This document shows, one piece after another, positions 3,054 through 3,575 of a stretch of 19,881 nucleotides of DNA. The stretch lies in assembly GCF_003334785.1 (NCBI RefSeq), contig NZ_QOWV01000032.1; one strand, 5' to 3'. Each line of letters opens with the position of its first letter. Within the stretch, counting starts at the first letter, position 1. The translations under genes were made by a program, and so were the position numbers. The DNA comes from Escherichia coli. GTDB lineage: Bacteria; Pseudomonadota; Gammaproteobacteria; Enterobacterales; Enterobacteriaceae. The notes below the pieces were generated by a model. The model was given only the letters and a program-made list of their open reading frames with translations, did no database searches and was not told the origin of the DNA.

Positions 3054-3575
3054 ATGGGTGGTCGTATATCATCTCCGTTTTCTGATGTTTCTGCAGGTAC
3101 TAACAGTGAGTTTATCAAAATAAAGATAAATGGAACGGTTGTACCGGGAAATTCGAAAGTAGATAAGTTTAGTGATTACTTTGATGGGTATAGTCCTAAC
3201 GCATTTCATGCTTTTGCTGGCGTGGACGGTACTTTTTTTGATATGGTTACTCTGAAGATTAAGGTTACGAAAGAAACAAAAAGTATTCTAGAGAACTTTT
3301 TTAAACGGGGTGGAAAAAAAATTACAATAGAAATTGTGCGCAGGGAAGCCACTGAGGTAGAAAGTTCGTATTCATCATATACGGTTATTTATGAAGATTG
3401 CCGTGTGCACGATCTGTTGTTGGCTCATGATCAAGCCTCTAATCTTATGGTTGAACTTTCGTTTACTCCTCGAGAAAGTGTCTCAATTGAACTCAATATT
3501 CCATCTTCTGATCGCAAAAAGACGGATAAAATAGGACCTATTGTCTATAACTTACAGAAAGAAATACTTGTATAA
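3054..3575 (+). CDS. hcp: Hcp (TssD) inner tube protein, divergent, with ~18-aa N-terminal extension
   Basis: 173 aa, strong RBS AAGAGG upstream. Segments FIKIKINGTVVPGNSKV, TLKIKVTKETKSILENFFKRGGKKITIEI and TVIYEDCRV align by eye with the conserved Hcp blocks (FxKIxGIxGES, SFTKxIDKSSPxL...GK...LTI, ITLxxVxISSxS). Position between tssC and tssE fits. Confidence 0.7.
   Translation: MGGRISSPFSDVSAGTNSEFIKIKINGTVVPGNSKVDKFSDYFDGYSPNAFHAFAGVDGTFFDMVTLKIKVTKETKSILENFFKRGGKKITIEIVRREATEVESSYSSYTVIYEDCRVHDLLLAHDQASNLMVELSFTPRESVSIELNIPSSDRKKTDKIGPIVYNLQKEILV

Follow-up and report, generated by a model that had tools for sequence, protein, structure and literature searches.

Which protein forms the inner tube in the T6SS (type VI secretion system) that is encoded on the 19,881-nt Escherichia coli contig NZ_QOWV01000032.1 (assembly GCF_003334785.1; this whole stretch is called the window below), and what are the additional residues found at its N-terminus? 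The gene in question is the open reading frame (ORF) at 3054-3575, which an earlier reading made from the letters alone (the sequence-only reading) had taken for a divergent Hcp with an N-terminal extension. The ORF boundaries given by that reading are exact: the ORF is on the plus strand, starts with ATG and has 173 codons plus stop. Its product opens with MGGRISSPFSDVSAGTNS and continues with EFIKIKINGTVVPGNSKV. Our analysis indicates that this aaiC-like gene very likely encodes the inner-tube subunit of an AaiC-type (E. coli T6SS-3 / Sci-2-like) T6SS on a conjugative-type plasmid, and that the subunit carries a tail that is predicted to be disordered and is probably loosely constrained.

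Identity of the probable tube protein

Sequence searches with the product of the ORF return homologues with E-values reaching 1e-105 to 1e-57 and, judged by these matches, the gene is not a chance ORF. The protein aligns to AaiC/Hcp2 of enteroaggregative E. coli (EAEC) 042 over 161 amino acids without gaps (60% identity, 81% positives, E 5e-78; about 74% identity between the two genes at the DNA level). RefSeq names this orthologue 'type VI secretion system protein AaiC/Hcp2' (EC042_4564, WP_000233190.1), and sequences identical to the window protein are already present in RefSeq as 'type VI secretion protein'. Classified by its sequence, the window protein is a plasmid-borne allele of AaiC/Hcp2 and belongs to an already known family. 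The two genes share the slot between tssC and tssE in clusters of the same order (Sci-2 / T6SS-3 in EAEC 042), and both proteins have a non-conserved, Ser-rich N-terminal tail before the sequence EF(V/I)KI. They differ in their location, with aaiC of EAEC 042 on the pheU island and the window gene on a plasmid, and in the tail, which has 18 amino acids in the window protein and 13 amino acids (MVGVMSNSSALSR) in EAEC 042.

AaiC was first held to have no homology to Hcp, and its status as a functional homologue was merely speculated (PMC2808357). According to the summary of Dudley 2006 in PMC6730261, AaiC is secreted and aai T6SS mutants block this secretion. Purified EAEC Hcp2 (EC042_4564) is a hexamer of ~123 kDa by light scattering and has the shape of a doughnut in negative-stain electron microscopy (PMC3925092). 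With this match and this literature, the divergence of the Hcp seen by the sequence-only reading is real, but the family was already known.

The same reading had called the protein only loosely Hcp-like, in good agreement with the sequence searches, all of which came back empty: the window protein has no match in Pfam even at E<=10 and none in NCBIfam at E<=0.01, and PDB sequence searches (phmmer/hmmsearch) with the protein or its family find no Hcp. Of 15 family members, none matches any Pfam family at E<=0.1; for comparison, EAEC Hcp1 reaches 164 bits on TIGR03344. Weak PDB profile matches to the arenavirus nucleoprotein and to picornavirus VP1 (E 0.4-2) were dismissed as noise. Canonical TssD/Hcp proteins (PF05638, TIGR03344; EvpC 3EAA, EAEC Hcp1 4HKH, Pseudomonas aeruginosa Hcp1 1Y12) have 7-15% sequence identity to the window protein.

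The predicted structure of the window protein has the Hcp fold, a two-sheet beta-sandwich with one flanking helix, as the sequence-only reading had anticipated. With a second, independent and shallower model, the top 50 Foldseek matches are all Hcp structures or engineered Hcp1 fusions. The next-closest folds after Hcp are the tubes of phages, pyocins and extracellular contractile injection systems, with values of about 10.5 for PVC and pyocin tube proteins and of 6-9 for phage tail tubes; Francisella IglC, which belongs to a different T6SS class, is a much weaker structural match than the true Hcps. Like the window protein, Hcp-ET proteins are Hcps with an appended segment. The extension of Hcp-ET is a C-terminal folded toxin domain, whereas the extra segment of the window protein consists of 15-18 N-terminal residues that are predicted to be disordered; its last Hcp strands reach the C-terminus at residue 173, and no folded toxin domain follows them.

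The genomic context points in the same direction. The window DNA is nearly identical to the E. coli plasmid pWP7-S17-ESBL-04_2 (NZ_AP022179.1), its closest record, from which it differs by substitutions at 2654 and 13891 and by an apparent indel near 16718; on this plasmid the T6SS cluster lies among insertion sequence elements and remnants of conjugation and pilus genes. The T6SS in the window is complete: besides the tube gene, it comprises tssA, B, C, E, F, G, H, I, J, K, L and M. The gene order is tssB-tssC-aaiC-tssE-tssF-tssG-vgrG, with the aaiC-like gene flanked by tssC and tssE, and no other candidate for an Hcp-like or tube protein was found among the products of the window ORFs. As every other core component is assigned to another gene, the aaiC-like protein is left as the tube protein by elimination. 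The identity of the window protein as a T6SS tube protein is well supported. Fold, synteny, elimination and the analysis of start codons (see below) together bear out the description as a divergent Hcp whose N-terminal extension is translated from the long start.

The protein could also be regarded as a secreted effector or substrate only, with the tube being formed by an Hcp whose gene lies at another place in the genome of the host. The early literature lists AaiC as a secreted protein with unknown function, and the protein fails all Hcp sequence models, both of which would be in line with such a role; it is nevertheless poorly supported and we consider it very improbable. As the tube subunit, and by analogy with the EAEC orthologue and with canonical Hcp, the aaiC-like protein would assemble into hexameric rings, these rings would stack on the VgrG-PAAR spike, surrounded by the TssB/TssC sheath, and contraction of the sheath would expel the tube together with VgrG-PAAR.

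Several points weigh against this identification. No sequence model, PF05638 of Pfam and TIGR03344 included, recognises the window protein as Hcp. In hhalign, a profile made from 20 AaiC-family sequences reached a probability of 0.15% with EAEC Hcp1 and of 2% with P. aeruginosa Hcp1, neither of which is significant, the targets being single Hcp sequences; all that was recovered was a GP(I/V)xY match near the C-terminus, co-linear with P. aeruginosa Hcp1 (E 0.024). The structure is a prediction for a single chain from a shallow alignment of 20 sequences. Finally, ring formation and secretion were reported for an orthologue with 60% identity and not for the window protein itself.

Translation start and N-terminal tail

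The sequence-only reading had argued that a strong AAGAGG ribosome binding site backs the long start, and this Shine-Dalgarno sequence is indeed present five bases before the ATG (Table 1). The stop codon of tssC is in frame with the aaiC-like ORF, three codons upstream of its ATG, so that no translation into the aaiC-like protein can come from upstream of 3054. There is no ATG, GTG or TTG in frame between 3054 and 3222: the next canonical in-frame start is the GTG at 3222 (codon 57), which would delete the first four strands. Among the canonical starts, only ATG 3054 thus leaves the fold (strand 1) intact, and the doubt raised with the earlier reading, that translation may begin further downstream, finds no canonical start codon compatible with the fold. 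Translation from ATG 3054 is probably coupled to tssC, in view of the overlap between the Shine-Dalgarno sequence and the stop codon of tssC. Promoter-like sites occur at chance level (59 versus 59.4 expected) and give no hint of an internal promoter driving the aaiC-like gene, and an Rfam scan of the window identified no RNA family.

The sequence TAAGAGGTTxTTATG is kept in four of six aligned homologous loci. In the remaining two, which are plasmid lineages, the upstream ATG is now ATA and the start is found four codons downstream, behind a new AGGAG. The window has ATG at 3054 and ATA at 3066 (aligned loci compared: L002, L004 and L005), and the alleles of EAEC 042 and P0013 carry both ATGs. 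Since ATG and ATA alternate across the aligned loci, the start has toggled between two positions four codons apart. The shifted starts still leave 10-11 residues before strand 1, and at least 10 residues before strand 1 are translated in all alleles of the AaiC clade, whatever start is used.

In these relatives, an ATG aligned with ATA 3066 is used as the start, and this could mean that the window protein has no tail at all, either because it starts at a non-canonical codon (ATA 3066 or ATC 3114) or because the tail is cleaved off. However, ATA and ATC starts are very rare, the consensus Shine-Dalgarno sequence of ATG 3054 is ideally spaced, and even the shifted starts of the relatives retain a residual tail. 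The mass of the EAEC Hcp2 hexamer, too, agrees with the theoretical mass of the full-length protein (PMC3925092). A protein without tail is thus very unlikely, and in the reading that we prefer translation would start at ATG 3054 and residues 19-173 would make the Hcp fold.

How unusual is this tail? The sequence-only reading had counted about 18 residues ahead of the conserved block and had stated that Hcps usually start close to it, and both observations hold. Strand 1 (EFIKIKI) is predicted to begin at residue 18-19 of the window protein, which leaves ~18 residues ahead of it, versus 3-5 residues in canonical Hcps: the strand begins at residue 4-6 in EAEC Hcp1 (MAIPVYLWLK), Myxococcus xanthus Hcp (MAESVHLYLK) and P. 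aeruginosa Hcp1 (MAVDMFIKIG). In both structure models of the window protein, residues 1-15/17 have a predicted local distance difference test (pLDDT) score below 50 and no structure. All members of the AaiC-proper clade, which share at least 41% identity with the window protein, carry an insertion behind Met1. Tail length differs between lineages (10-19 amino acids), the composition of the tails is 31% Ser and 16% Gly (47% Ser plus Gly), and identity within the clade averages 29% for the tail versus 65% for the body.

Distant members of the family (24-37% identity) have ~7 residues (MAKLxxC/S) before strand 1. These short-tail proteins, from E. coli, Yersinia enterocolitica and Enterobacter soli plasmids and from Providencia rettgeri, have the same fold length and, as far as the E. 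coli, P. rettgeri and E. soli loci that were inspected show, the same gene slot as the window protein, but they lack the Ser/Gly-rich insertion and the MGG start. The extension is, as far as the models and the alignment go, an intrinsically disordered tail limited to the AaiC-proper clade; homologous clusters share it within this clade, in variable form, while the remoter members do not.

For the extension, a change in tube packing and a tethered cargo-binding peptide had been suggested. The tail could indeed be a functional element of the tube, either an inter-ring packing arm, as the N-terminal arms of some phage tail-tube proteins, or a peptide in the lumen by which cargo is tethered or selected: it is kept at 10 or more Ser/Gly-rich residues in every member of the AaiC clade, it lies directly ahead of strand 1, and the closest folds outside Hcp are those of phage, pyocin and extracellular contractile injection system tubes. 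Engineered PDB chains (4ksr, 6ap1 and 7o42), in which large proteins (entire ATPases) are attached N-terminally to P. aeruginosa Hcp1 and Hcp1 makes up the C-terminal part, are still hexameric, indicating that the N-terminus of Hcp tolerates additions at the level of the ring. To us, these fusions further suggest that the N-terminus may leave from a ring face, which would be compatible with a functional element; a tail of 15 residues in a stacked tube would then have to exit either to the lumen or to the gap between tube and sheath.

Still, the tail is predicted to be disordered without any secondary structure, it evolves fast and varies strongly in sequence and length, sister lineages with the same cluster architecture do without it, two lineages have shed its first four residues through start shifts, and no accessory gene co-varies with its presence in the loci inspected. 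Low complexity, disorder, length variation and partial loss by start shifts also speak against a sequence-specific binding peptide. A functional element of either kind is, on balance, unlikely. From the same sequence comparisons we infer that the tail is loosely constrained, and it would be a flexible appendage tolerated by ring assembly rather than a specific cargo-binding or packing element. This view has to accommodate that all tails of the AaiC clade are at least 10 residues long, that the Ser/Gly-rich composition is kept and that nine of 15 tails start with MGxxx[ST]: some selection on the tail is likely and the tail is probably not entirely neutral, since both minimum length and composition persist across the clade.

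The start shared by these nine tails, with MGGRISS in the window protein, also resembles a signal for N-myristoylation by a eukaryotic host (Met-Gly-x-x-x-Ser/Thr); once its Met had been removed, an injected tube protein could be anchored via the lipid at eukaryotic membranes, with the Ser/Gly tail as a spacer. Type III systems are known to have injected effectors that are myristoylated. The window sequence fits the signal with its Met-Gly, a small uncharged residue at position 3, Ser/Thr at position 6 and a residue other than Pro at position 7, a motif that is likely to arise from composition; the distant short-tail members start with MA, MS or MT instead, and the EAEC aai cluster is part of the AggR virulence regulon (PMC6863884). 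However, the allele of EAEC 042, the only one linked to virulence, has no Gly2 (MVGVMS), the start of two lineages lies downstream of the motif, a tail with 31% Ser is expected to have Ser/Thr at position 6, and a review assigns an antibacterial role to T6SS3 (PMC6730261). Moreover, the matching tails form one clade, so that the motif counts as about one event. A myristoylated tube protein is accordingly far-fetched, and a loosely constrained tail remains our preferred explanation.

No description of N-terminal extensions of Hcp was found in the searchable literature, nor of where in the tube the N-terminus of Hcp is located, nor of a clade-restricted, variable, disordered tail in combination with a toggling start, which is a minor feature. 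The aaiC-like gene and its tail suggest no new mechanism, but the tail can be seen as a small natural experiment on the N-terminal load that is tolerated by an Hcp ring, useful for the engineering of Hcp fusions.

Distribution and detection of the AaiC family

The AaiC family is very small: a profile search run exhaustively over 1.84 billion representative proteins yielded only 25 clusters, and the named sources are E. coli, Escherichia marmotae, Salmonella, P. rettgeri and plasmids of E. soli and Y. enterocolitica. Of 5,426 complete E. coli genomes, 99 have related genes, with a plasmid location in about half of the cases; such genes are also present on 74 PLSDB plasmids, most of which are typed as conjugative. 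The distant members occupy the slot X in the order tssB-tssC-X-tssE-tssF-tssG-vgrG-(DUF6931)-PAAR-tssA in E. soli, P. rettgeri and an E. coli-type metagenome contig; a fourth such locus, on an E. coli plasmid, has no tssB/tssC upstream.

A few apparent family members were rejected. Three proteins (P0019, P0032 and P0036) matched the family profile with E-values of 1e-25 to 1e-5 in the search of representative proteins: P0019 (2,652 amino acids) and P0036 (1,689 amino acids) are long repeat proteins (fungal adhesin-like and RTX-like) with many summed short partial matches and thus artefacts, and P0032 (2,814 amino acids) has a similar pattern of matches in multiple stretches and is assumed to be an artefact too. 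The odd homologue P0027 (202 amino acids), with an apparent long tail, goes back to the same locus in a set of reads where A and G are swapped throughout: the tssB-tssF locus L014 (a Logan contig from SRR33321306) differs from positions 905-6121 of the window by 1,517 A>G, 1,102 G>A and 34 other substitutions, which is a data artefact.

As neither Pfam nor NCBIfam has a model that sees the family, AaiC-type genes are weakly annotated, often as 'hypothetical' or 'type VI secretion protein', although their product is the tube protein of AaiC-type T6SSs, which are carried by conjugative plasmids of E. coli. The AaiC-family Hcps need a profile model of their own, as T6SS-3-type clusters are otherwise scored as Hcp-less. 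The divergence also matters for diagnostics, where aaiC is a standard marker for EAEC in the polymerase chain reaction. The standard aaiC primers (PMC3256949) have five mismatches each to the window allele (at 3170-3194 and 3459-3482), some of those in the forward primer near the 3' end. Going by these mismatches, the plasmid allele is probably not amplified and would be neither detected nor cause a false positive.

The surrounding gene cluster

Table 1. Position of the aaiC-like gene, its parts and the neighbouring T6SS genes in the window
Feature	Position	Strand	Remarks
tssB, small sheath subunit	1087..1563	+	TIGR03358, 166 bits
tssC, large sheath subunit	1560..3044	+	TIGR03355, 674 bits
Shine-Dalgarno sequence AAGAGG	3043..3048	+	5 nt 5' of ATG 3054; overlaps tssC stop TAA (3042-3044)
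aaiC-like gene, TssD/Hcp-type tube protein of the window T6SS	3054..3575	+	173 amino acids plus stop
N-terminal tail, codons 1-18 (MGGRISSPFSDVSAGTNS)	3054..3107	+	predicted disordered, Ser/Gly-rich, AaiC-clade-specific
Hcp-fold body, residues 19-173	3108..3572	+	beta-sandwich and one helix (residues 75-83), from predicted structure and structural matches
tssE-like gp25 baseplate protein	3584..4006	+	TIGR03357, 24.5 bits (under cut-off of 53.2); RefSeq: GPW/gp25 or lysozyme family
tssF	3999-5801	+	TIGR03359, 450 bits
tssG	5765-6724	+	TIGR03347, 169 bits
vgrG	6737-8776	+	
DUF6931 gene	8787-9254	+	
PAAR gene	9263-9562	+	
tssA, tssJ, tssK, tssL, tssM, tssH/clpV	9566..19497	+	rest of the core set

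Among the remaining genes of the cluster, tssM (13561-16965) is annotated as frameshifted in NZ_AP022179.1, while the ORF in the window is intact (1,134 amino acids). Its product is very divergent, with 45 bits on TIGR03348 versus a cut-off of 388. TssJ (10650-11201) has no NCBIfam match, and its N-terminus is lipoprotein-like (...FFITAC). As far as profile scores can tell, the T6SS-3-type cluster as a whole is poorly covered by the profile libraries.

A gap of ~337 nt (12600-12936) separates the stop codon of tssK from the start of tssL/DotU in RefSeq (12937), whereas the other genes of the operon abut or overlap. The mechanically defined tssL ORF reaches back to 12856, and an ORF of 63 amino acids is found at 12749-12940. 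The gap may contain an internal promoter, or it may result from a mis-set tssL start. Upstream of tssB, an ORF with GTG start (349-717, 122 amino acids) corresponds to the RefSeq hypothetical protein WP_126720455.1 and matched no family. Expression of the chromosomal EAEC cluster is AggR-dependent (PMC6863884), and the region of this AggR-dependent promoter corresponds to the 1,086 bases upstream of tssB in the window. Terminator-like hairpins are about twice as frequent in the window as expected from shuffled sequence (25 versus 12.7 +/- 4.0). The G+C content of the window is 34-47% per kb, far lower than the ~51% typical of E. coli and consistent with a horizontally acquired island.
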